A stretch of 64,000 nt of DNA, from positions 35,341 through 99,340 of the forward strand of contig JAGRNF010000008.1 in assembly GCA_020440865.1 (NCBI GenBank), in the 5' to 3' direction. The DNA is from Leptospiraceae bacterium (GTDB lineage Bacteria > Spirochaetota > Leptospiria > Leptospirales > Leptospiraceae). This document shows, piece by piece, positions 5,596-50,450 of the stretch (positions are counted from its first letter, which is position 1; the number at the start of each line of letters is the position of its first letter). Below the pieces are notes generated by a model. That model was not told the origin of the DNA, searched no databases, and worked only from the letters and a program-made list of their open reading frames with translations. The translations under genes were made by a program, and so were the position numbers.

Positions 5596-6519
5596 TTGAG
5601 TACTGCAGATACATCTGAAAAACTATCCAGATTGTCCTCACCTGATCTGGATGAGGTTCTGGGATTGCCGTTTCGGGTACTGGATGATGGTTTCATTCGG
5701 GTAATTGATTATATGGGCACAGACGAAGCTATAGTTCAGGCCGCCAGAGTTTCCTATGGAAAGGGAACCAAGAAAGTCAATGAAGACAGAGGACTGATTC
5801 GCTACCTACTCCGCCACAAGCACACAACTCCTTTTGAAATGTGTGAAATCAAATTGCATGTTCGCGTTCCCATGGACACCTGGAGACAATGGATCCGACA
5901 TAGAACAGCAAATGTGAATGAATACAGTACAAGATATTCAGTGGCAATCGATTCTTCTCAAAAAACTTCCCCCTCAGAATGGAGAAAACAATCTTCAGAC
6001 AACAAACAGGGAAGTTCCGGATTTTTCTCTCCTGAAGATGGAAAACTACTGACTGACCAGGAAAAAGAATTCCACAATCTTTCACAAAAAATTTACAACG
6101 AACGAATAGAAAAGGGAATCGCCAGAGAACAGGCAAGAAAAGATCTTCCCCTTTCCACATACACAGAAGCCTACTGGAAAGTTGACCTTCACAACCTCCT
6201 GCATTTTCTTGCTCTGAGAATGGACTCCCACGCTCAACTAGAAATCCGACAGTACGCCAGAACAATTGGTGAAGAAATTGTAAAGCGTTGGTGTCCTATC
6301 GCATGGGAAGCCTTTCAGGACTATGTTGTACATAGCTCCAGCCTTACCCGTATGGAAATGGAAATTCTCAAAGAAATCACTTCGGGAAATACTGAATCCG
6401 CCATTCAAAAAGCAATCGGTTTCGGAATGTTAAATTCTGATCGATCTGTAAAGAAAAATCGGGAACGGGAAGAACTTGAGGAAAAGCTAAAAGACCTAAA
6501 TTTAAATATTCCCTGGTAA
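5596..6519 (+). CDS. thyX: FAD-dependent thymidylate synthase ThyX
   Basis: ThyX RHR-x7-S motif (RHRTANVNEYS). TTG start with AAAGGAGAGA ribosome-binding site upstream. Confidence 0.85.
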   Translation: MSTADTSEKLSRLSSPDLDEVLGLPFRVLDDGFIRVIDYMGTDEAIVQAARVSYGKGTKKVNEDRGLIRYLLRHKHTTPFEMCEIKLHVRVPMDTWRQWIRHRTANVNEYSTRYSVAIDSSQKTSPSEWRKQSSDNKQGSSGFFSPEDGKLLTDQEKEFHNLSQKIYNERIEKGIAREQARKDLPLSTYTEAYWKVDLHNLLHFLALRMDSHAQLEIRQYARTIGEEIVKRWCPIAWEAFQDYVVHSSSLTRMEMEILKEITSGNTESAIQKAIGFGMLNSDRSVKKNREREELEEKLKDLNLNIPW

Positions 6520-6530
6520 GAATGTACTAA

Positions 6531-6622
6531 TTCTCATAAATAATTACAGATTTCCTATTTGGGTATGTAGCCATTTTATAGCTGAGTTCTTTATGAAAGT
6601 GAAAATATTTTTGATATTGACT
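6531..6622 (-). repeat. copy D of the ~95-bp interspersed repeat family (minus orientation)
   Basis: Plus-strand tcataaataattacagatttcctatttgggtatgtagccattttatagctgagttc...ttgatattgact aligns with copy C (49288-49380) at about 65-70% identity. The TATAAAATGGCTAC core is on the minus strand. Confidence 0.7.
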
Positions 6623-6629
6623 TTAAGTA

Positions 6630-6697: not shown

Positions 6698-6785
6698 ATC
6701 ATCTCCGAATCCTTATTTTTATTGATTTATAAGTAAAATATAATTTTGAATAAAAAAAAACCAACTTCAAGTTTTCTCAAAGCAT

Positions 6786-7601
6786 TTAAAATTCCAAATT
6801 TAAAAATTCCTTTCTTGCCTTCAGTGTATCACGAAAAGTGGAAAGATTATTGTGATACCCTCCTTTGACTTCAACATACCTAATTCTTTCAGACAACCTG
6901 CCGATTTCCCTTCCCATTTCCACAGGAATGATTTCATCACGATCTCCGTGTAAGATTAACGTATTACCACCATAACTATCGACATATTTTTTAGTCTCCA
7001 GGCGATATGACAGTATCACACCTGGGACAAAAGGAAAGTATTTCTTTGCGATAGCGGGAAAATCAGTGTAAGGTGTCTCTAATATTAATCTCTTTGTTTT
7101 TTTATGATTGGCAAGGTAGGCGGCAATCGCTGTTCCTATAGATCTTCCATAGGGAATGATTTCCTTACCCGGATATTTTTGAACTAAGTATTCATAGAGT
7201 TCCAATGCATCCGAATACAATAAGTCTTCATCCGGTTTTCCATCACTTTTTCCATAACTTCGATAATCGGTGATAAATAGATCCCAATGATTGGGGAGAA
7301 ATTCTCTGTACACATCTCCCCAGGAACGCAGACTTCCAGCATTTCCATGGAAATAGAGTATGATCCCCTTTGATTCCTGTGAATTGAAATATAAAGAATT
7401 GATTTTCGTCCCATCCTGCATAGCTAAAGTAATCTCTTCAAAGGGAGAATCATATTGAAAAGAATGCTCCGGAGGAAGTTTTTCGGGATAAAAAATCAGT
7501 GATTGTTCCAAAAATTTTAACAATTTCAAGATACCTCCGAATAAAATTAAAAAAAGAACTAGAGTAAAAAGATATTTTTTCATCGCAAAATGCTCAGGCA
7601 C
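6786..7601 (-). CDS. alpha/beta hydrolase
   Basis: GRSIG nucleophile elbow (G-x-S-x-G). HGNAGS-type oxyanion region. N-terminal transmembrane anchor. Confidence 0.7.
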   Translation of the reverse strand: MPEHFAMKKYLFTLVLFLILFGGILKLLKFLEQSLIFYPEKLPPEHSFQYDSPFEEITLAMQDGTKINSLYFNSQESKGIILYFHGNAGSLRSWGDVYREFLPNHWDLFITDYRSYGKSDGKPDEDLLYSDALELYEYLVQKYPGKEIIPYGRSIGTAIAAYLANHKKTKRLILETPYTDFPAIAKKYFPFVPGVILSYRLETKKYVDSYGGNTLILHGDRDEIIPVEMGREIGRLSERIRYVEVKGGYHNNLSTFRDTLKARKEFLNLEF

Positions 7602-22065: not shown

Positions 22066-22274
22066 GAATTAGTTTGTTCCTTATAATAACTATTGACTTT
22101 ATATATAGCCTTTTATTATAGCATTAAATTTTCAATAAGAATTATAAAAAATGGAGAAAATCTATCAATAAAATAAGCGGAAGCTTCAGTAATCTGAAGC
22201 CTAATCAAATTAAAAAGTTAAAATCACTATCTGAAAAAAGGAATCGGGAAGATAGTATTGTATCTATTGAATTA

Positions 22275-24491: not shown

Positions 24492-25765
24492 TGCAAATCT
24501 TCTAATCTCAGCATTACAGATTTCTTTAAAATGATAGATAAATTATCAATTACCTCTATGGATCTATGAACATCCTGCTCTTTGCATCTATGAGTAAGAA
24601 TTATGACCTCAATCGGTTCTGATTCCGATTCATCCTGTCGGACAGAAGCAATGGATACATTATTTTTACCTAAATGGTTGGATATTTCAGCAATTACACC
24701 CGGTTTATCAACAGTATTGAATCTAATATAGTACCTGGAAGTCTCCTGACCGTGAGGAATTATATTCCCTTTATCGAATATATTGTCTTCAAAACAATCA
24801 TGATTCCCCCGTCTACTACCATAATAAACCAAATCCGATGCCACTGCACTCGCTGTTGGCAATGATCCCGCACCTTTTCCGGTAAACATTAGCGATCCCG
24901 CAAAATCGGATTCAATATAGATCGCATTCATTTCATTCATAACGCTGGCAAGGGAATGCTTAAGAGGAACCATCGTAGGTTGCACTCTTGCTTCAATATT
25001 CCCTGATATCATTTTGGATATCCCTAAGAGTTTGATTCTGTAGCCCAATTGCTTGGCTGTTTGAATTTCAGATTGACTGATCTTTGTTATCCCTTCGATG
25101 TAAATATCTTTGATATCAATTCTTTTACCGAATGCAAGACCCGTGAGTAATGAAACTTTGTGAGCCGCATCAATACCTTCAACATCAAAAGTGGGATCTT
25201 TTTCTGCAAATCCCAAATCCTGTGCTACTTGCAAAGCTTTTTCATAATCCCAATTTTCTTTCTCCATCTTAGAAAGTATGAAATTTGTAGTACCATTCAA
25301 GATACCGTAGACTGCTTTAAATTCATTTGCTACCAAACCTGTTTTTAATGAGCGAATGATAGGGATTGTTCCGGCAACAGCCGCTTCGTATCCTATTTCA
25401 ACAGAATTTTCTTTAGCAAGAGAAAACAACTCATCCCCTTTCTCTGAAAGAAGTGCTTTGTTTGCTGTGACAACAGTTTTTCCGGCTTTTATAGAATCTT
25501 TGACAATATTGTAGGCAATTCCGGTCCCACCAACTAACTCGACTATCAAATCAATATTTTTATTTGATATCAATTCTAAATAATCGGATGTAAAACCCAA
25601 TTGTGGATATGTTTGTTTTATTGAATTCTTTTTATCACAAACAAAGAGTAGTTCCAAATCTACACCGGAACGTTTTGCGATATCCTGCCTTTTTTCCAAA
25701 AGGATTTGTATCAGACCGGATCCAACTGTTCCGGCTCCAACGATCCCAACCCCGATTTTTTTCAC
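24488..25765 (-). CDS. hom: homoserine dehydrogenase
   Basis: NAD-binding GIVGAGTVGSG; catalytic domain; C-terminal ACT domain. Confidence 0.85.
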   Translation of the reverse strand: MKKIGVGIVGAGTVGSGLIQILLEKRQDIAKRSGVDLELLFVCDKKNSIKQTYPQLGFTSDYLELISNKNIDLIVELVGGTGIAYNIVKDSIKAGKTVVTANKALLSEKGDELFSLAKENSVEIGYEAAVAGTIPIIRSLKTGLVANEFKAVYGILNGTTNFILSKMEKENWDYEKALQVAQDLGFAEKDPTFDVEGIDAAHKVSLLTGLAFGKRIDIKDIYIEGITKISQSEIQTAKQLGYRIKLLGISKMISGNIEARVQPTMVPLKHSLASVMNEMNAIYIESDFAGSLMFTGKGAGSLPTASAVASDLVYYGSRRGNHDCFEDNIFDKGNIIPHGQETSRYYIRFNTVDKPGVIAEISNHLGKNNVSIASVRQDESESEPIEVIILTHRCKEQDVHRSIEVIDNLSIILKKSVMLRLEDLH

Positions 25766-26508
25766 TAGGATAACTCCAGATCTGAAGAAGGCTCAAAGTT
25801 TGAATTTACGCTCTGGACATCATCATGGGATTCTAACAAATCTAATATTTTAATTACTTTCTCTGCTGTAGATTGATCATTCACGTCAGCTTTTACCATG
25901 GGGATGTACTTAATTCCGGACTCAACCACTTCGAGTTCCTTTTTGCTGATCTCAGAAAGAACATTTTCAAAATCATCAGTGGAAGTAGTTACAGTAAATA
26001 GCTCATCTTCCAGTACTACATCTTCCGCTCCTGCTCCGGCAGCCAAATCTATCAATTCTTCTTCGGAGATCTGCTCATTTTTTAAAGTGATCACTCCTTT
26101 TTTGTCAAACAGGCGGCTGACCGAACCCGGATTTCCCAGAGAACCCCCACCTTTTGTCAGGATATTTTTGATTTCGGGAGTTGTTCTGGATTTTTTATCC
26201 GTAACCACCTGAACCATTATCCCTACTCCTCCGGGCGCAAAGCATTCATAGAGACATTCTTCATAGGTCACTCCTTCCAGCTCACCCGCTCCTTTTTTTA
26301 TAGCCCTTTCAATATTGTCTTTAGGCATGTTTGCGGATTTGGCTTTCAACACGGCTAGTCTCAATCGGGGATTGGTTTCCGGATCAGAGCCCCCCATCCT
26401 GGCTGCTACTGTTAATTCTTTAGCAACTCTAGTAAAAACTGCCCCTCTTTTGGCATCCAGAGCTTCTTTTTTTCGTTTGATTGTCGCCCATTTTGAGTGT
26501 CCAGACAT
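25765..26508 (-). CDS. yebC: YebC/PmpR-family transcriptional regulator
   Basis: [15 protein letters not shown]-terminus is diagnostic. Confidence 0.85.
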
Positions 26509-26622
26509 AATTATCCTCTATTGAAAAGTACAGATTAGAATTTGATCAATTTCTCTAACCAGATTTATCAGTAGGATAAATTTATCGAATTTTTTTTTTC
26601 AATTTGTTTTTTCCGAATTTAT

Positions 26623-26716
26623 AGTCATTTTCAAAAGTATTTGCTCACTCACTGAAGAATCAGCTATAAATCGGCTACGTAATTTCAGAAGAAATAGGTA
26701 AGTATTTCGAAAACCA
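26623..26716 (+). repeat. copy A of the ~95-bp interspersed repeat family, forming the gyrB promoter region
   Basis: agtcattttcaaaagtatttgc TCACTCACTGAAGAATCAGC TATAAATCGGCTAC ...gaagaaataggtaagtatttcgaaaacc. -35-like TTGCTC, an 18-bp spacer, then TATAAA. Aligns with B, C and D. Confidence 0.75.
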
Positions 26717-26793
26717 TCATATGTCGGTTCATTGAGAATAATAAAGAGAAAACAGCTGAGTATTGGGAAATCACTTGCGTTCAAATAGCTATG

Positions 26794-28732
<1,939 letters not shown>

Positions 28733-28755: not shown

Positions 28756-29334
28756 TCAGGGAAGTACTTTCTTTTCAATCAAGTCCAAAGTACTTGCAGA
28801 AAATCTTAAGAAATATTTCTTTTGGTTTTCTGATCCTCCATCCATAGAATAAATCCAAATCAAATCAACCTGAATTTCTCCATCCTTAATCTTCCAGTTC
28901 TTTTTATAATCTTGAATCAAAGTGGAATTGTAATTTAATTTTTCAGTAACTGATTGATGAACTGCTCGATTTAGTTCTATTCCGGTTATCCATTTGTATC
29001 CCGGGAAAAACTTTTCAAGGCTGGATTTCTCTACCCTATAGAGAGTCTCCATATACATAGATTCATGTGAATCTCCCTTTGTGTATCCAAAGTACACATA
29101 TTGGCCATCTTCATATATGATTTCCCAGATTCGTCCCAGGATTTTTTTTATCCTATTTTCCATTCTTTTCTGGAAAAAAAAATCAGGATCTACCAACTCT
29201 GAAGTATTGATATTTTTTCCATTTTTCACTTCAGAAACCATGTACTTTTTCGAACAAGAAATCAATGTCATAATCCAGAGGAGTGGTATAATTATAAAAT
29301 ATTTCATATTCATTTTTTGAAATCTTTCATTCAA
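28756..29334 (-). CDS. hypothetical lipoprotein
   Basis: Signal peptide with lipobox LISC. Confidence 0.45.
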   Translation of the reverse strand: MNERFQKMNMKYFIIIPLLWIMTLISCSKKYMVSEVKNGKNINTSELVDPDFFFQKRMENRIKKILGRIWEIIYEDGQYVYFGYTKGDSHESMYMETLYRVEKSSLEKFFPGYKWITGIELNRAVHQSVTEKLNYNSTLIQDYKKNWKIKDGEIQVDLIWIYSMDGGSENQKKYFLRFSASTLDLIEKKVLP

Positions 29335-29535
29335 ATTGCAATGAATTTTTATAGTATATTGAAGAGTCTATTTTATCGAGTTGATAATTATTAGTTCTCA
29401 GATAAAATTTAATTTTTCAATTTACAAAATTTATTCTTTTTATTACTGATTCACTACTGCAAATGTAGATCTTTTTGAAAATTAATAGAGGTTTTTATTC
29501 ACTCAAATTTTTATTTTATTTGTTTTTCAGCTTAC

Positions 29536-29625
29536 AGTCACTTTCAAAAGTATTTGCGTATTCACAAAAGAATTATTTATAAAATGGCTACATTGCAAAA
29601 TATGAAAAGTATATATATTTAAGAG
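29536..29625 (+). repeat. copy B of the ~95-bp interspersed repeat family, forming the ruvC promoter region
   Basis: agtcactttcaaaagtatttgc GTATTCACAAAAGAATTATT TATAAAATGGCTACATTGC. Same TTGC-N18-TATAAA layout as A. The 3' part is more diverged. Confidence 0.7.
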
Positions 29626-29661
29626 AATTTGTATAACAATAATAATGAAAAAAGAGAAGTT

Positions 29662-30165
29662 ATGAATCAATCAAAACATTCCAGAATCATAGGAATAGAT
29701 CCGGGATCACATCGCATTGGTTTTGCGATTTTAGAGAAAAATGTATCTAAAAAAATACAAATCCTAAAGTACGGTACAATTGAAATTCCTCCCAAAACTG
29801 AGTTTGGCGAAGCAATGATTCAACTCAGGAAAGAATTGATTTCTCTTGTTGATGACTTCAAACCCCAGCTAGCTAGCGTTGAAGACTTATTCTTTAGTAA
29901 AAATGTAAAAACAGCAGCAAAAGTTTTTCAATCCAGAGGTGTGATTTTACTTACTCTTGCAGAGAGAGCGATCCCGATTCTTGAACCTACTGTGAGTCAA
30001 ATAAAGAAAGGTGTCACAACCTCAGGAAAAGCGGATAAGAATCAAATAAAATCATCTTTAAAACTTCTACTTCAAATTGAAGATCTCAAGGGATTGGATG
30101 ATTCATGGGATGCTGTGGCCTGTGCCTTTGTGGGATTTTCGATGCAGGGATCTAAATTATTTTAA
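29662..30165 (+). CDS. ruvC: crossover junction endodeoxyribonuclease RuvC
   Basis: [17 protein letters not shown]-terminal RNase-H-fold motif with catalytic Asp. The ORF track starts at 29629 (MYNNNN...). The ATG at 29662 ([15 protein letters not shown]) is more plausible. Confidence 0.8.
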
Positions 30166-30656: not shown

Positions 30657-31752
30657 AATGATTCTCCTTTACCTTACCCTTATTAATTTCAAATATAGAA
30701 ATCTGGTTTCGGAAGTTTTTTAAAAAATCATCCAGACCGTCTAAATCAGTAGTTGTAAAAAAAGATTGTCCGCTTTCCATTAACAATTCCAGAAAGTAAT
30801 TTCTCCTTTTTATATCCAATTCTCGTATGACATCATCAATCAAAAGCACAGGTGTTTGATTTCTTATTTTTTTTATGTGTTTAAATTGAGCTGTTTTCAT
30901 GGCTATCACAGAACTTCTTTTTTGTCCCTGGGATCCAAATTCAGTAATATCTTTAGAATCTTTACCAATGAATAAATTGTCCCTATGAGGTCCGACTGTT
31001 GTATATCCCAATTTTAAATCCAGATGTTTTCGCTTTTGTAATTTATCCCTAAAGGATTCTTCTGAATTTACATTAGGATTGTATATGATTTCAAAAATAT
31101 CTTTCTCACCGCTTAGTATTTTGAGATTTTCCCTATAAATTTCATTGAGAGAGGCAATCACCCCGATTCTCTCTGAAATAAGAAAAATTCCTTTTTCCAC
31201 CAAAAGATTGTCCCAGGTAACCAGTTCAACTTCAGATTTAGCTTGTGATTTCAATAAAGCATTTCTATGTTTTAGTATTTTATTATATTCCAATAAATTG
31301 ATTAAATATTCACGGTTATAGATCGAAAGGAACGAATCTATAAACTTTCTCCTTTCCGCAGGACCTCCATCGATAATTTTTAAATCTATAGGGGATAGAG
31401 TAATTGTTATGAAATTTCCTATAAAATCTAATTTTCGGTTTATTTCTTTCTCGTTAAGTTTGATTTTCTTTTTCTTGGTGCCTAATTTTGTAAAGCCTAT
31501 CTCGAATTCGTCTACATCATCAGCATTCTGAATCTCTGCTTTGAGGTAATACGTATCCTTATCCCAGTTAAGTATTTCATCATCTGTATTGTCCCGAAAA
31601 CTTTTCAATGTAGAAAACATTTGAATCGCTTCCAGGAGATTTGTCTTACCTTCTCCATTCTCACCAATGAAAAAATTTAATCTGGAATTAAACTTTAATT
31701 GCACAGACTCATAATTTCTAAATGAATTGATGAGAATAGAGTTTATCTTCAT
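30643..31752 (-). CDS. recF: DNA replication and repair protein RecF
   Basis: Walker A GENGEGKTNLLEA. SMC-like signature. Overlaps dnaN by 4 bp. Confidence 0.85.
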   Translation of the reverse strand: MKINSILINSFRNYESVQLKFNSRLNFFIGENGEGKTNLLEAIQMFSTLKSFRDNTDDEILNWDKDTYYLKAEIQNADDVDEFEIGFTKLGTKKKKIKLNEKEINRKLDFIGNFITITLSPIDLKIIDGGPAERRKFIDSFLSIYNREYLINLLEYNKILKHRNALLKSQAKSEVELVTWDNLLVEKGIFLISERIGVIASLNEIYRENLKILSGEKDIFEIIYNPNVNSEESFRDKLQKRKHLDLKLGYTTVGPHRDNLFIGKDSKDITEFGSQGQKRSSVIAMKTAQFKHIKKIRNQTPVLLIDDVIRELDIKRRNYFLELLMESGQSFFTTTDLDGLDDFLKNFRNQISIFEINKGKVKENHYEFV

Positions 31753-32870
31753 AATTTCATTGGCATAACAACTGAAATATATTGTGGATCTGATGGATCT
31801 TTAAAGACAACCGGTGCATTAGAATTATTGAATTCAATTATGATTTCTTGATCTTCTATAGATTTTACTATATCTAATAAAAAATCACCTTTGAAAGCAA
31901 TAGTAGTATCTTCACCTGAATAATCCACAGGAATATTGATGTTTGCCTCAGTAGTCCCCGGAGTTGACGCATTGATATGTAAGTTATTATCATTGAATCT
32001 TAATCTTAATTGTCTGGATGGTTCTTCTGCAGCTATCAGAGCCTGACGTAGAGCTACCAAGAATTTATCTTTTGGCATCTTGATATTATTATGAGTTTCT
32101 TTGGGAATTACAGCTTCGTAGTCAGGATAATTTCCATCTATCAATTTACATAATAACTCAATCTCATTAATTTTAATATAGATTTGGTTATCAATTAAAC
32201 CTATTCTTCCTGATTCATTATGATCTATTATTTTTAAAATCTCTTTTATAGCCTTGTGAGGAATAATCACACCATTTTGAAACGGTAAGTTATTAGTAAA
32301 TTCTCTTTCTACTCTAGCTAATCTTCTACCATCTGTTCCAACTACAACTATTTTGTTTTCAAAGCTTTTGACATACAGTCCATTAAAAACAAACCTGGTG
32401 TCTTCTAGAGCAACAGAAAAAGATGTTTTCTTAATCATACTGGAGAGTGTATTACACTGAAATCCTGATGTTCTTGAATCATCTATCGTAGAGATCGTTT
32501 TGATTTCTTCTCCTCCGATTCCATTGATCATCATTTTGAAATCAACCTTGTTTTCAGCATCGGTGATTATAGTCTTAGCTGAATTTTCACCTTCATTCAC
32601 ATTTTCTAATGATGTTTCACTGAAATTAATTGCTTTCAAAATATTGCTCAACTGCTTAGCGGGAATGGATCCACTTCCAACAACATGAGTATTTGATGCT
32701 ATAGATGTTTTAATAGAGATTTCCAAATCTGTAGCTGAAATAGAAACTCTGTTTTCCTCAGCCTCCAGTTTCAAATTAGAGAGGACAGATTTTATTTCTC
32801 TAACAGTGATTACCCCTTCTACTGCAGAAATAGCTTTTTGAAAATCTCCAGTTTTGACATGGAACTTCAT
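31749..32870 (-). CDS. dnaN: DNA polymerase III beta sliding clamp
   Basis: 373 aa with the three-domain beta-clamp pattern (MKFHVKTGDFQKAI... N-terminus); operonic with recF. Confidence 0.85.
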   Translation of the reverse strand: MKFHVKTGDFQKAISAVEGVITVREIKSVLSNLKLEAEENRVSISATDLEISIKTSIASNTHVVGSGSIPAKQLSNILKAINFSETSLENVNEGENSAKTIITDAENKVDFKMMINGIGGEEIKTISTIDDSRTSGFQCNTLSSMIKKTSFSVALEDTRFVFNGLYVKSFENKIVVVGTDGRRLARVEREFTNNLPFQNGVIIPHKAIKEILKIIDHNESGRIGLIDNQIYIKINEIELLCKLIDGNYPDYEAVIPKETHNNIKMPKDKFLVALRQALIAAEEPSRQLRLRFNDNNLHINASTPGTTEANINIPVDYSGEDTTIAFKGDFLLDIVKSIEDQEIIIEFNNSNAPVVFKDPSDPQYISVVMPMKL

Positions 32871-32927
32871 AGCAAAACTCCTTATATATTTAATTTAACT
32901 TTCTTATATAGTAATAATAATTAGCGG

Positions 32928-32936
32928 TGTGTATAA
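32928..32936 (-). promoter_or_regulatory. DnaA-box-like 9-mer upstream of dnaN
   Basis: Plus-strand TGTGTATAA equals TTATACACA on the minus strand and fits TTATNCACA. It lies 58 bp upstream of the dnaN start. Confidence 0.35.
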
Positions 32937-32979
32937 GTAACTAACCCCAAGAAACTACATTTTTTTATAGAAAATATGC

Positions 32980-33067
32980 GACATATTTTTTGAAAATAAC
33001 TTTTTCAATAAACGACATAATTCGTAATCAGTATTATGTCTAAGAGACAATAAATCTTAATTATGTC
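32980..33067. repeat. four GACATAAT-type 8-mers (two per orientation) in the dnaN/pgk divergent region
   Basis: GACATATT 32980-87 sits inside the palindrome AAATATGcgaCATATTT. GACATAAT is at 33014-21. ATTATGTC is at 33033-40 and at 33060-67. Sites 2 and 3 form GACATAAT-N11-ATTATGTC. Confidence 0.45.
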
Positions 33068-33442
33068 CTATTAACACTTTGTTCACTAGAAATTTACCTA
33101 TTACAATACTTGTTTACGGACTTATTTACAGGTAAATAAAATATAACTGATATTTTCCTCTAAAATCTCTCTGAATTCTATAGGAATTAATTTAGGAAAA
33201 TCTAATGATTCTAAAAAATTATAGATTATCTGTAATATTTTTTAAGATTCAATTCACCGATATTTTTGTTTTTTTTGTCTTGTACTTAGATTCATTTTTC
33301 ATTTACTAAAATTTGAACCCGAGTTTAGAGTAATTGCTTTTCTTTTTTAGGTCATTTTTTTTACTTTGAAAGAAGAAATTTCATAACTTTTCTTATCAGA
33401 AGAAAAATAATTATTTCGAATCTTAAGGAGGATGGGAATAGG

Positions 33443-47047: not shown

Positions 47048-47953
47048 TTAAGGAGTGACAGAAATTACTTCGTCTCTATTCACCATGTCTACAATGTGTT
47101 TGTATTCTACAGAACCTTTGCCATACTTCAGCTCAGTTGCTCTAAGAAGGTGAACGTTTTTCTTGTTCTTGAGTTTTTGTACTTGGTCATCGCTACCGGC
47201 TTTGTATTTTTTCAAAGTGTTTTCTTCGAAAGAATAGCAGCTAGCCAGGTATTTATGAGCAGGGTACTCTTTTTCGTTAAGATCAAGCTCGAGGTAAAGC
47301 TCTATGATAGGAATACACTGAGGATAATTCTGTGTATCATATTCAGCCATAATCCATGCTCTGTAAACAGAAGAAAGAAGTGTTTTGTATGCTTTCTCTT
47401 CTCTGAGGTCAGGATTTTTTATTTCATCGAGGTGATTGATCGCTTTAGTGAAATAAGTAACTGCAGCTAATTTAGCAGCCATTTTTTCACGTTGAATATA
47501 TCTTTCTTCGTTAGCTTTTCTATCGATTTTTTGCCAGTACCATTTTTCATCAAGACGCTTCTTTTCAGATTGCTCTTTTCTGTATTGCTCGATGTTTTCT
47601 CTCATCTTGAGAATAGTGTTCATACCAGACTGGTAAGCGGAAAGTGCAAGTCTGTATTTATTGTTAGCAAAAGCTTTGGAAAGTTTGTGTAAATCCTCGA
47701 ATGCTTTGTTGTAACCAGCAAAGTCGGGGTTCTTCCACATAGCTTCTTGCTTAATGATTTCTTTCTTTCTTGCTTTTTCTTCATCGGAAAGATTAGCATC
47801 ATCATCCGGAACAAGCTCGCCCTTAATGGTAACTTCTTCTTCACTATTTGCTGCAGCTTTGTCTGGTTGTCCTGCAGGAGCTGGATCCTGAGCATATAGA
47901 ATACCAAAGTTGATCAGCACTAAGAGAATGACTAGTCTATTGAAAATCTTCAT
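47048..47953 (-). CDS. hypothetical secreted/lipoprotein
   Basis: 301 aa with a signal peptide and an alpha-helical, coiled-coil-like, Lys/Glu-rich body. Confidence 0.45.
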
Positions 47954-49287
47954 CTTGTTATACCTTTAACTCTCTTTCAATATTTAAGACAGACTTATAA
48001 ATAAATCTATCCCGTAATTAATATCGGAAATGCCCTATGCAAGGTCAATCCAATAAATAATATTTTTTTAGAATGTGTACTTTTTTTTAATGAGACATAG
48101 TAAAAATATGGGAAAATATTGAGTTTTTTACTAAAAAATCTAATTTAAATTCTTTTCAATCAGATTGATTTTGTGCTTAAACTCCATTATTTCTTTAAAA
48201 TCTTCATGCTTCTGGTACAAACCTTCATTAGGCTTCTATTCTGTTGATAGGCAAGTATTCTATCTAAAATTGAGAAAAAATGAAGAAATTTATTTTTTCG
48301 GAATGTATCTTTTTTTTAAAATCACGACCCATTTGAAAATTTTTTAGATGTATGCACATATAGATAAGATGGTTTAAATAAAAAACAGAATGAATTTCGG
48401 TTTTTCAAAAGATCAAAAAGAAAATAATTCCAAACGGTTTGTTCAATTCATTCAAAAGTTTCTATTTGATATCCTTATTTCTTATAATTCAAATCCAGTA
48501 GCCTTTTAAATTTTCATTTTATTTCTATGCCTGTAATAGAGTGAGGTTTGGGGAAGGGTCGCTGAACTGTTCTTCTGGACCTTCCGGTTGTCTGTGAATT
48601 TCAGTTTTAGCAATTGTATTCTTAAAACTTATTGAGAGCGGGTGGAACAATCTTTTTAACACCATTCAGGTTTCATTTTAAACAGGAGAGATTTCTTCAG
48701 AATGCAAAGTCCTACTTCATCGGAAAAAATAGGATTCAAGCATTTCCATCTACTTTAGATTATTTTTCTAAGTATTGATAGTTATCCTTTTTTCTAAAAA
48801 TTCCTTCCTTCCCAATTCAGTTTCTCTCTTTTTAGCAAAATATGAATTCCTCAGTACTACCTCAAAATGGATATAGGGTGTCTTCTAAGTCGATGTACTC
48901 ATATTTTCCTTTCTGCTTTTGTAAACTAATGAAGCAATTCAATTCATCCATATTTATTTTCAAGCACTCAAAAATGAAACTTGGGTTCTTATCTGAAATC
49001 CTATTGTATTTTTCTTTAAAAGATTCGGTTACGAAATCAAGGGTCTAAAGTTTCCAATCAAAGTAGTCTCCGGTTTGGAGTGGGTGGGTTGCGTACTATT
49101 TTCTAGCTATACATCAACTTTGAATTGAATATGCAATTTGTATCTTTCTAAAGTAATCTATTATCAAGACTCCTGGAATTTTTTGTTTTTCATCACTCAG
49201 CTCCTAAAAATCCATAGAATGAAATATTTTTTGGATGTTCGGAAAGTAAAGTTCGAATGAAAGAGTGGATTTGAGTTTCTTCTATAC

Positions 49288-49380
49288 CGGTTTTCATAAA
49301 TACTTACGTATTTCTTCGTAAGGTTTGTAGCCGTTTTATAGATGATTCTTCTGTGAATGCGCAAACCTTCTGAAAATGAC
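49288..49380 (-). repeat. copy C of the ~95-bp interspersed repeat family (orphan, in non-coding gap)
   Basis: Minus strand: agtcattttcagaaggtttgcGCATTCACAGAAGAATCATCTATAAAACGGCTAC aaaccttacgaagaaatacgtaagtatttatgaaaacc. About 80% identical to copy A over about 95 bp, including the downstream leader. Confidence 0.75.
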
Positions 49381-50129
49381 TATAAATAAAAATTTTCATC
49401 TCCCTGAAAAATCATAAGATCTATTCCATCAGTCACGAATGCTTGATCTCTTCTATTATTGCAATTTGGGAATTGGTGTTTAATTTTTTTGAATTGTATC
49501 CTCTTTGTGATTTGAGGAAAATTATTTCCTCTTCTTTATTTAATGAGCAAAGATCTCTTCTGTGTTTACTCTAAAATCTTAGTTCAAGGTCAGAATGGCT
49601 GATGAAACCTAATTAGAGGCTAGGATATTTGTTCTACTAGAGAAAAGTCCTAATGCCCCTTTGCAATGAATTAGTAACTCATCCTACGCAGTATTTTATT
49701 TTTCAAATTTTTTTTAGTTTAAAATCAAAATCATTTTTTGCTAATAAATCAATAAAAATATGGGTTTAGGCGATAGCCCAAGCTGTCCGCAGGCTCCCTG
49801 CAACCTCACATTTCACTTCTTTGCGTAATGTGAGTTAGTAAACTATTTGCTGAAATTTTCGTTTCTCCGTTGATATGAGAATACCCAAAATTTGGAAAAT
49901 TTTGATATTTCGGCCTGTAGTACCCACAGGGTAGATTTTCAAGATTTTCTCTTTTTGGGGCCTTTCTCTGGAGATGGAATCTTTACTAAGAACATAAGTT
50001 TCTATTTTAAATAGAGTGAAACATAAGACTATTTCTTCCGGATGTTTCAAATCTATCAGGTTCTTTAAAATAACTCATTGGAAATTTCAAGTTCTACCGA
50101 AATTAAAAATAAAACGGTGGTGACCAGCA

Positions 50130-50450
50130 ATGCCCAAAAATACTCCAGCCAATGCAAAGGGAAAACAGGTATCCAAGAAGAGAGTTGCCCAAAAATCCAA
50201 AGTTAAGAAAAAACCACAAACAGTATCTGCTAAGAAAAAGACTATCGGGCAGGGTCTTGTGAATGTGATGTTGGATACCAAAAAAATCAAGATTCAAAAC
50301 GTTGAAGTCTCCAAGCAAGCATTCGAAAATTTAGCTATTTTTGCCTCCAACCTCAAACCTGCTATGACAATTGAACAAGCGATATCCAGTTTGCTCGAAC
50401 AGGGGTTTAACCCCAAATTCAATCCTAAAAAAATTCCACTCCTTCCGTAA
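50130..50450 (+). CDS. small lysine-rich basic protein (possible nucleoid-associated protein)
   Basis: 106 aa. The N-terminal 45 residues are a Lys/Ala/Pro-rich tail (KGKQVSKKRVAQKSKVKKKPQTVSAKKK), followed by a globular C-terminal half. GGTGGTGA ribosome-binding site. Sits just upstream of rsmG. Confidence 0.45.
   Translation: MPKNTPANAKGKQVSKKRVAQKSKVKKKPQTVSAKKKTIGQGLVNVMLDTKKIKIQNVEVSKQAFENLAIFASNLKPAMTIEQAISSLLEQGFNPKFNPKKIPLLP

Follow-up and report, generated by a model that had tools for sequence, protein, structure and literature searches.

Nezha and some other cyanobacterial MITEs have been proposed to be derivatives of IS630-family insertion sequences (ISs) with which they share their ends, and they show TA duplication and high copy number. 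In S. pneumoniae, the 107-bp MITE RUP has a TA target and ends like those of IS630-Spn1, with a tendency to land in other mobile elements (PMC2229807). The resemblance of its inverted repeats to those of an IS630-family IS is the basis for inferring mobilisation in trans. The Correia/NEMIS elements of Neisseria are about 105-155 bp long, carry inverted repeats of roughly 24 bp beginning with TATAG, duplicate TA and are located in intergenic regions (PMC2229807). They contain internal promoter-like hexamers and form a long hairpin on transcription (PMC2229807). IS630-family elements themselves insert into TA and duplicate it (PMC2170065). Leptospirales have been reported among the orders which are richest in MITEs (PMC11602168).

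Here we describe an interspersed repeat in a stretch of 64,000 nucleotides from a Leptospiraceae bacterium, in the following called the window. The repeats are very probably decayed copies of a non-autonomous MITE that was derived from an IS of the IS630/Tc1-mariner type, and they were presumably mobilised in trans by such an IS. A sequence-only reading of the same DNA had recognised no likeness to a MITE or an IS end, which was wrong: the repeat has terminal inverted repeats, three comparisons with TA duplication and IS630-like ends. Among the three identities suggested there, the mobile cassette came nearest; neither the small-RNA gene family nor the shared leader of gyrB and ruvC held up. 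A limited literature search found no published description of this MITE family.

Like RUP, the Leptospiraceae element is intergenic, multi-copy and non-coding, is nearly the same size (101 nt plus TA compared with 107), inserts at TA and has IS630-like inverted repeats. RUP enters other mobile elements; the Leptospiraceae element has entered its own copies and a second repeat family. The two differ in that their hosts belong to unrelated phyla and their sequences, judged from the descriptions, are seemingly unrelated. The candidate parent ISs of the Leptospiraceae element, in addition, come from other, related genomes and from metagenome contigs. The Correia/NEMIS elements are similar in size, TA duplication, intergenic position and internal promoter-like hexamers, but they carry an IHF site and have experimental support for an influence on neighbouring transcripts, whereas the promoter-like core described here is poorly conserved; host and sequence also differ. 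With ISY100 and IS630 the element shares the TA target and the 2-bp duplication. Among the relatives of these ISs found here, the one in L117 is ~1.1 kb long, encodes a 343-aa transposase with HTH and DDE_3 domains and has ends matching those of the MITE at 24-25 of 31 positions, whereas the window element would be a 101-nt derivative which contains no transposase gene. For Nezha the same origin has been proposed, and the lineage and the sequence, by description, set it apart. REP/BIME elements, which are RAYT-mobilised and consist of an imperfect 20-40-nt palindrome with a conserved GTAG-like head and no target duplication, were considered and rejected in view of the 101-nt unit, the TA duplication and the IS630-like ends.

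Repeat copies in the window

Four copies were identified in the window, all of them within a few bases of the places given in the sequence-only reading. With a profile of the four copies (nhmmer), each was found at an E value of 1e-25 to 1e-29, while the next best match in the 64-kb window had an E value of 0.36. Their pairwise identity is 66-82.5%, close to the 70-80% estimated before. The unit, earlier put at ~95 bp, is longer (about 102 nt with both flanking TAs) and has sharp ends. The motif TCAY-N12-TATAAANNGGCTAC-N12-GAAA has four matches in the window and none in 100 dinucleotide-preserving shuffles. Pairs of copies were also recovered independently by a general repeat search of the window (D2, I1 and I2). 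The copies and their neighbours are:

26620..26721, plus strand: copy A (TA 26620-26621, element 26622-26719, TA 26720-26721), 79% identical to the family consensus, with a degenerate 3' end (GAAAACCATCA-TA); in the spacer between yebC (25765-26508, minus strand) and gyrB (26819-28732, plus strand)
29533..29635, plus strand: copy B (TA-CAGTCAC...TTTGTA-TA), 78% identical to the consensus; neighbours are a hypothetical gene (28756-29334, minus strand) and ruvC (probable ATG at 29663)
49283..49384, minus strand: copy C, 85% identical to the consensus, both TAs kept, the best preserved of the window copies; in an ORF-free 2.2-kb region with fcpA (47048-47953, minus strand) on one side and a small ORF followed by rsmG-parA-parB on the other
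6523..6625, minus strand: copy D, 80% identical to the consensus, 5' end TAAAGTCA, 3' TA mutated to CA; neighbours are a thyX-like gene (5596-6519, plus strand) and, convergent with it, an alpha/beta hydrolase gene (6786-7601, minus strand)
29393..29482, minus strand: candidate fifth copy, heavily decayed and uncertain (matched by nhmmer to positions 8-97 of a profile of 33 copies, E 0.048)

The candidate fifth copy, the only additional one in the window, would stand head-to-head with copy B. Three further degenerate fragments, suggested earlier at about 48440-48510, 22100-22135 and 185-230, were recovered by neither profile, even with that of 33 copies at E<=1.

The four copies sit in AT-rich spacers as old insertions, with 78-85% identity to the family consensus, and overlap only short spurious ORFs of up to about 55 aa. 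As had been noticed before, copies A and B precede gyrB and ruvC, each in a spacer between divergent genes. All strain contigs recovered for the window organism carry copies A and B. Around copy C, the strain contigs either carry this copy or break at the neighbouring second repeat. Among the contigs recovered, neither a presence/absence difference nor an empty site was found for any of the four copies. The region 47954-50129, which contains copy C and the second repeat, extends over 2.2 kb without an ORF of more than 71 aa, and most metagenome contigs of the window organism end inside it, at the second repeat.

The cumulative GC skew has its minimum at ~32-34 kb (in the surroundings of 32871-33442), adjoining dnaN (31749-32870, minus strand), recF and a DciA-like gene. 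Across a 572-nt spacer from dnaN lies pgk, not dnaA, and no dnaA was found among the ten window ORFs scanned against Pfam. This may be the origin region, with a gene order that is unusual for Leptospiraceae.

Distribution of the family in other genomes

The strict core motif was scanned against one genome per species, covering 185,579 species. This gave 19 matches at 18 loci, all in a single MAG, Leptospiraceae bacterium HK-STAS-SPIR-4 (JACKPB01); the repeat is thus a genuine interspersed family with copies far beyond the window, as the sequence-only reading had supposed. The HK-STAS-SPIR-4 loci overlap the window nowhere and the window therefore belongs to a different genome. A profile search of the 8-kb loci from HK-STAS-SPIR-4 (144 kb sampled) revealed about 40 copies, roughly half of which lack the strict motif. 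Some of them stand in tandem and some are nested. Outside this MAG, the scan yielded three single matches, all in Bacteroidota (L012, L014 and L016). These are chance matches, none of which reaches E<=1e-3 with the family profile (best L016, E 0.39).

All copies are intergenic and occur in both orientations; based on crude ORF calls, none overlaps an ORF of at least 90 aa by more than 15 nt. Orientation could be scored for 33 copies with simple ORF calls: 14 of them face the start of a following gene, 19 run into a 3' end, and the family has no orientation bias.

In a third organism, with 90% identity to the window in gyrB, two diverged copies adjoin the downstream side of this gene (L026 11958-12057 and 12815-12917). 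Its yebC-gyrB spacer is without a copy. This spacer aligns to the window only over the first ~120 nt beside yebC and is therefore not a clean empty site for copy A. Downstream of gyrB, an acetyltransferase gene replaces the window order of hypothetical gene and ruvC. The change in synteny may mark a rearrangement breakpoint associated with the MITE copies.

These data bear on the idea that the repeat is a shared operator or leader, through which one regulator or nucleoid protein would coordinate gyrB and ruvC near the replication origin. In its favour, the genes that follow copies A and B both serve DNA metabolism, and the distance to the minimum of the cumulative GC skew is 4-7 kb. However, copies C and D are found beside unrelated genes or in convergent spacers, and the roughly 40 copies in HK-STAS-SPIR-4 adjoin unrelated genes in both orientations. 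A common leader of the two genes is unlikely, given the dozens of copies with unrelated neighbours and the lack of a copy in the orthologous yebC-gyrB spacer of the third organism (gyrB 90% identical). The sequence within copy A, moreover, changes faster than its flanks (see below). Taken with its evidence on both sides, we give coordination of gyrB and ruvC by such a leader practically no credence. The position of the copies beside gyrB and ruvC is incidental.

Structure of the element and its folding

The element consists of 101 nt between TAs and reads TA-TAGTCATTTTC...GAACTGGTA-TA. Alignment of 33 full-length copies gave the family consensus TA-TAGTCATTTTCAAAAGTATTTGCGCATTCATAGAAGAATCAGCTATAAAATGGCTACATACCTTAATAGGAAAAACGCAATTATTTATGAGAACTGGTA-TA, in which conservation begins abruptly at TATAGTCA and stops abruptly at GGTATA. 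The 5' flanking TA is kept in 28 of the 33 copies; of the two TA bases on the 3' side, one is kept in 29 copies and the other in 31. A T precedes the 5' TA in 24/33 copies, and the 3' TA is followed by T in 24/33 and then by A in 27/33. These base preferences suggest TT[TA]TA as the preferred insertion target. Among the 18 copies which were found by the profile and not by the search pattern, conservation is highest at the termini.

The terminal inverted repeats are imperfect and weak: the 5' end of the consensus and the reverse complement of its 3' end agree at 20 of 31 positions, which is weaker than in many MITEs. The family comprises two subfamilies that differ in the 3' half, and this accounts for the extra downstream block shared by copies A and C. 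In being short (under about 300 bp) and non-coding, with imperfect terminal inverted repeats, TA duplication and many dispersed intergenic copies, the element agrees with the bacterial MITEs. TA insertion with a 2-bp duplication and IS630-like ends place it with those derived from IS630/Tc1-mariner elements.

Conservation that runs on downstream of TATAAA would also fit a family of paralogous small-RNA genes, as had been proposed, in which the promoter of each copy directs synthesis of a regulatory RNA that is structured and ~50 nt long. With the four window copies, RNAalifold proposed a long-range stem including G-U pairs, but this stem is the pairing of the terminal inverted repeats, and with 32 copies the program found 0 consensus pairs. 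A near-consensus young copy can form one long hairpin from end to end (z -3.07), whereas folding of the window copies is not more stable than that of shuffled sequences (z -0.15 to -1.46). There was no Rfam match at the gathering score in the whole window, nor at E<=1 in the region 47900-50200 around copy C, and no terminator-like sites were found. In addition, copies stand in tandem, are nested in one another and are interrupted. The small-RNA reading is therefore highly improbable.

Insertion at TA dinucleotides

One of the insertions described below lies in a copy of another interspersed repeat, the second family, whose unit is about 173 bp long. The ends of this unit are inverted (TAACTCATCTTACGCA...TGCGTAATGTGAGTTA), and an internal segment is rich in G+C. 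Copies of the second family are:

49670-49842, window: copy of the second family
6708-6749, window: inverted fragment
L005 6697-6869: copy
L013 5758-5924: copy
L019 7064-7234 and 24-125: copies
L010 3804-3908: copy
L025 7427-7598: uninterrupted copy
L025 5004-5276: copy holding an insertion of the 101-nt element

The copy of the second family in the window is 92-95% identical to those in HK-STAS-SPIR-4, compared with 78-85% identity of the window copies of the 101-nt element to their own consensus. The second family had no Rfam match. It is probably another TA-bounded MITE.

In L025 (5004-5276), the element is located inside a copy of the second family and the junctions read AGTT-TA-[TAGTCA...CTGGTA]-TA-TAATC. 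The empty counterpart in the same genome (L025 7427-7598) reads AGTT-TA-TAATC, and comparison of the two shows an exact 2-bp duplication of TA. Two independent nested insertions were found in L007 (3693-3880) and L013 (5520-5722). They belong to different subfamilies and are both inserted in inverted orientation into the same site of another copy, CAGCTA[TA]AAATGG, with duplication of TA. This site is the "-10" of the sequence-only reading. In total, three comparisons of filled and empty sites show TA duplication, two for insertions into other copies and one for an insertion into the second repeat family. Abutting tandem copies (L019 and L020) have a single TA in common, and the head-to-head pair in L021 shares TATA. 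A model with a 4-bp TATA duplication was also considered; it fails at the nested junctions, which it leaves with an extra unexplained TA, and was rejected.

The promoter-like core

In the sequence-only reading, copy A was thought to drive gyrB. The repeat would accordingly contain a mobile or exapted promoter of the sigma-70 type (TTGCGC-N18-TATAAA), by which copies A and B drive or modulate gyrB and ruvC. The two copies are co-oriented with these genes and precede them by about 100 nt (gyrB) and about 27 nt (ruvC), and the hexamers with their 18-nt spacing are present in the family consensus. Putative promoters have been reported within Correia elements (PMC2229807). Nevertheless, a sigma-70 consensus scan called the core in neither A nor B, since TATAAA does not end in the T of a -10 hexamer (position 6). 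For gyrB, the scan picked a better site, TTCAAA-17-TATAAT at 26780-26808; this lies outside the element, is a consensus match only and coincides in part with the probable ribosome-binding site. Of 18 unbiased copies, only 4 have kept TATAAA, and the -35-like hexamer varies; that the core looked invariant is due in part to the use of four copies and to a core-based search pattern. In 19 of 33 copies, the element faces the 3' end of a gene, and the TATA of the core is a preferred insertion target for other copies.

Strain variation at copy A speaks against the promoter as well. The contig L001 comes from a strain which is 99.5% identical over 5.9 kb, and its copy A scores 17 bits lower than that of the window. 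Between L001 1799-1905 and window 26617-26723, there are 6 substitutions within copy A compared with 2 in about 170 nt of flank, and both TATAAA and GGCTAC of copy A are changed. The substitutions indicate that constraint is relaxed locally, or mutation elevated, within the element. The claim that copy A drives gyrB thus found no support, and a mobile or exapted promoter is, in our judgement, unlikely to explain the repeat. It is a similarly slim chance that some copies, e.g., those at gyrB and ruvC, have been co-opted by the host, with the central palindrome TAGCTATAAAATGGCTA and the flanking hexamers acting as a weak promoter or protein-binding site that modulates the genes nearby, a role which has been argued for Correia elements. 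For the copies in general we infer that they have no host function. The element belongs to an ordinary class of genomic parasites and is not a family of promoters or small RNAs which couples gyrB and ruvC.

Relationship to IS630-family insertion sequences

A link of the MITE to ISs was met via the gyrB region of the Leptospiraceae MAG GCA_033762425.1, whose gyrB is 85% identical. The locus began inside a transposase gene, and the DNA just past the stop codon of this gene matches the 3' end of the MITE. Full-length ISs were reached by a metagenome scan together with a full-length protein query. The IS of GCA_033762425.1 is:

L117 1426-2541: IS of 1116 bp with TA on both sides

It encodes a protein of 343 aa with HTH and DDE_3 domains, which is named "IS630 family transposase" at NCBI. 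At predetermined positions, its left end agrees with the 5' end of the MITE in 25/31 bases (binomial probability about 7e-8) and its right end with the 3' end in 24/31 (about 5e-7), while its own two ends match each other in 25/31. A TGA in the MITE stands in the same register as the stop codon TGA of the L117 transposase.

An IS of the same architecture was found on a metagenome contig (L029). Its ends match the MITE in 23/31 and 21/31 positions, and its transposase was assigned to NCBIfam NF033545 (IS630) with 211.6 bits against a cutoff of 100, and to Pfam DDE_3. A further relative, L119-L121, also has this architecture; in L120, the ends match the MITE in 22/31 and 21/31 positions. The L029 IS sits inside an IS5-family transposase gene (flanks 1-187 and 1305-1931), the right flank of which matches NCBIfam NF033581 with 172 bits. 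Joined by a single TA, the two flanks keep the reading frame (KKYLLILQKLYNLSD), and this supports the IS boundaries as they were inferred.

Beyond about 30 nt at each end, local alignments between the interior of the MITE and the subterminal DNA of the ISs were unconvincing. The ISs found, with ends that are about 70-80% identical, are therefore relatives of the parent and not the parent itself. No IS630-family transposase gene was detected by tblastn in the 64-kb window or in the 18 loci of HK-STAS-SPIR-4 (144 kb). A trace at window 48952-49038 was non-significant (tblastn E 0.18), gave nothing with the full-length query and was dismissed. A protein-database search with a 125-aa C-terminal fragment of the transposase returned only relatives with no more than 54% identity and did not reach the parent.

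Based on the IS630-like ends, we infer that the MITE was mobilised in trans by an IS630-type transposase in the window organism. In the proposed pathway, the small non-coding element would have arisen from an IS of the IS630/Tc1-mariner family. The transposase would act on it in trans by cutting at the imperfect inverted repeats of about 26-31 nt and inserting the element at TA, which would thereby be duplicated. The window copies would then have decayed as old insertions in AT-rich spacers.

Significance for Leptospiraceae genomes

The results add a defined IS630-type MITE family, with its consensus, ends, target and candidate parent ISs, to a MITE-rich bacterial order (PMC11602168). Four conserved intergenic blocks of the window, and probably many more in the genome, are explained as transposon relics, and their annotation as promoters, leaders or small-RNA genes should therefore be avoided. 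The MITE family also helps to explain why metagenome assemblies of the window organism break in repeat-rich spacers. If the co-option of some copies were true, it would give an uncultured Leptospiraceae lineage a regulatory module that was distributed by a transposon.
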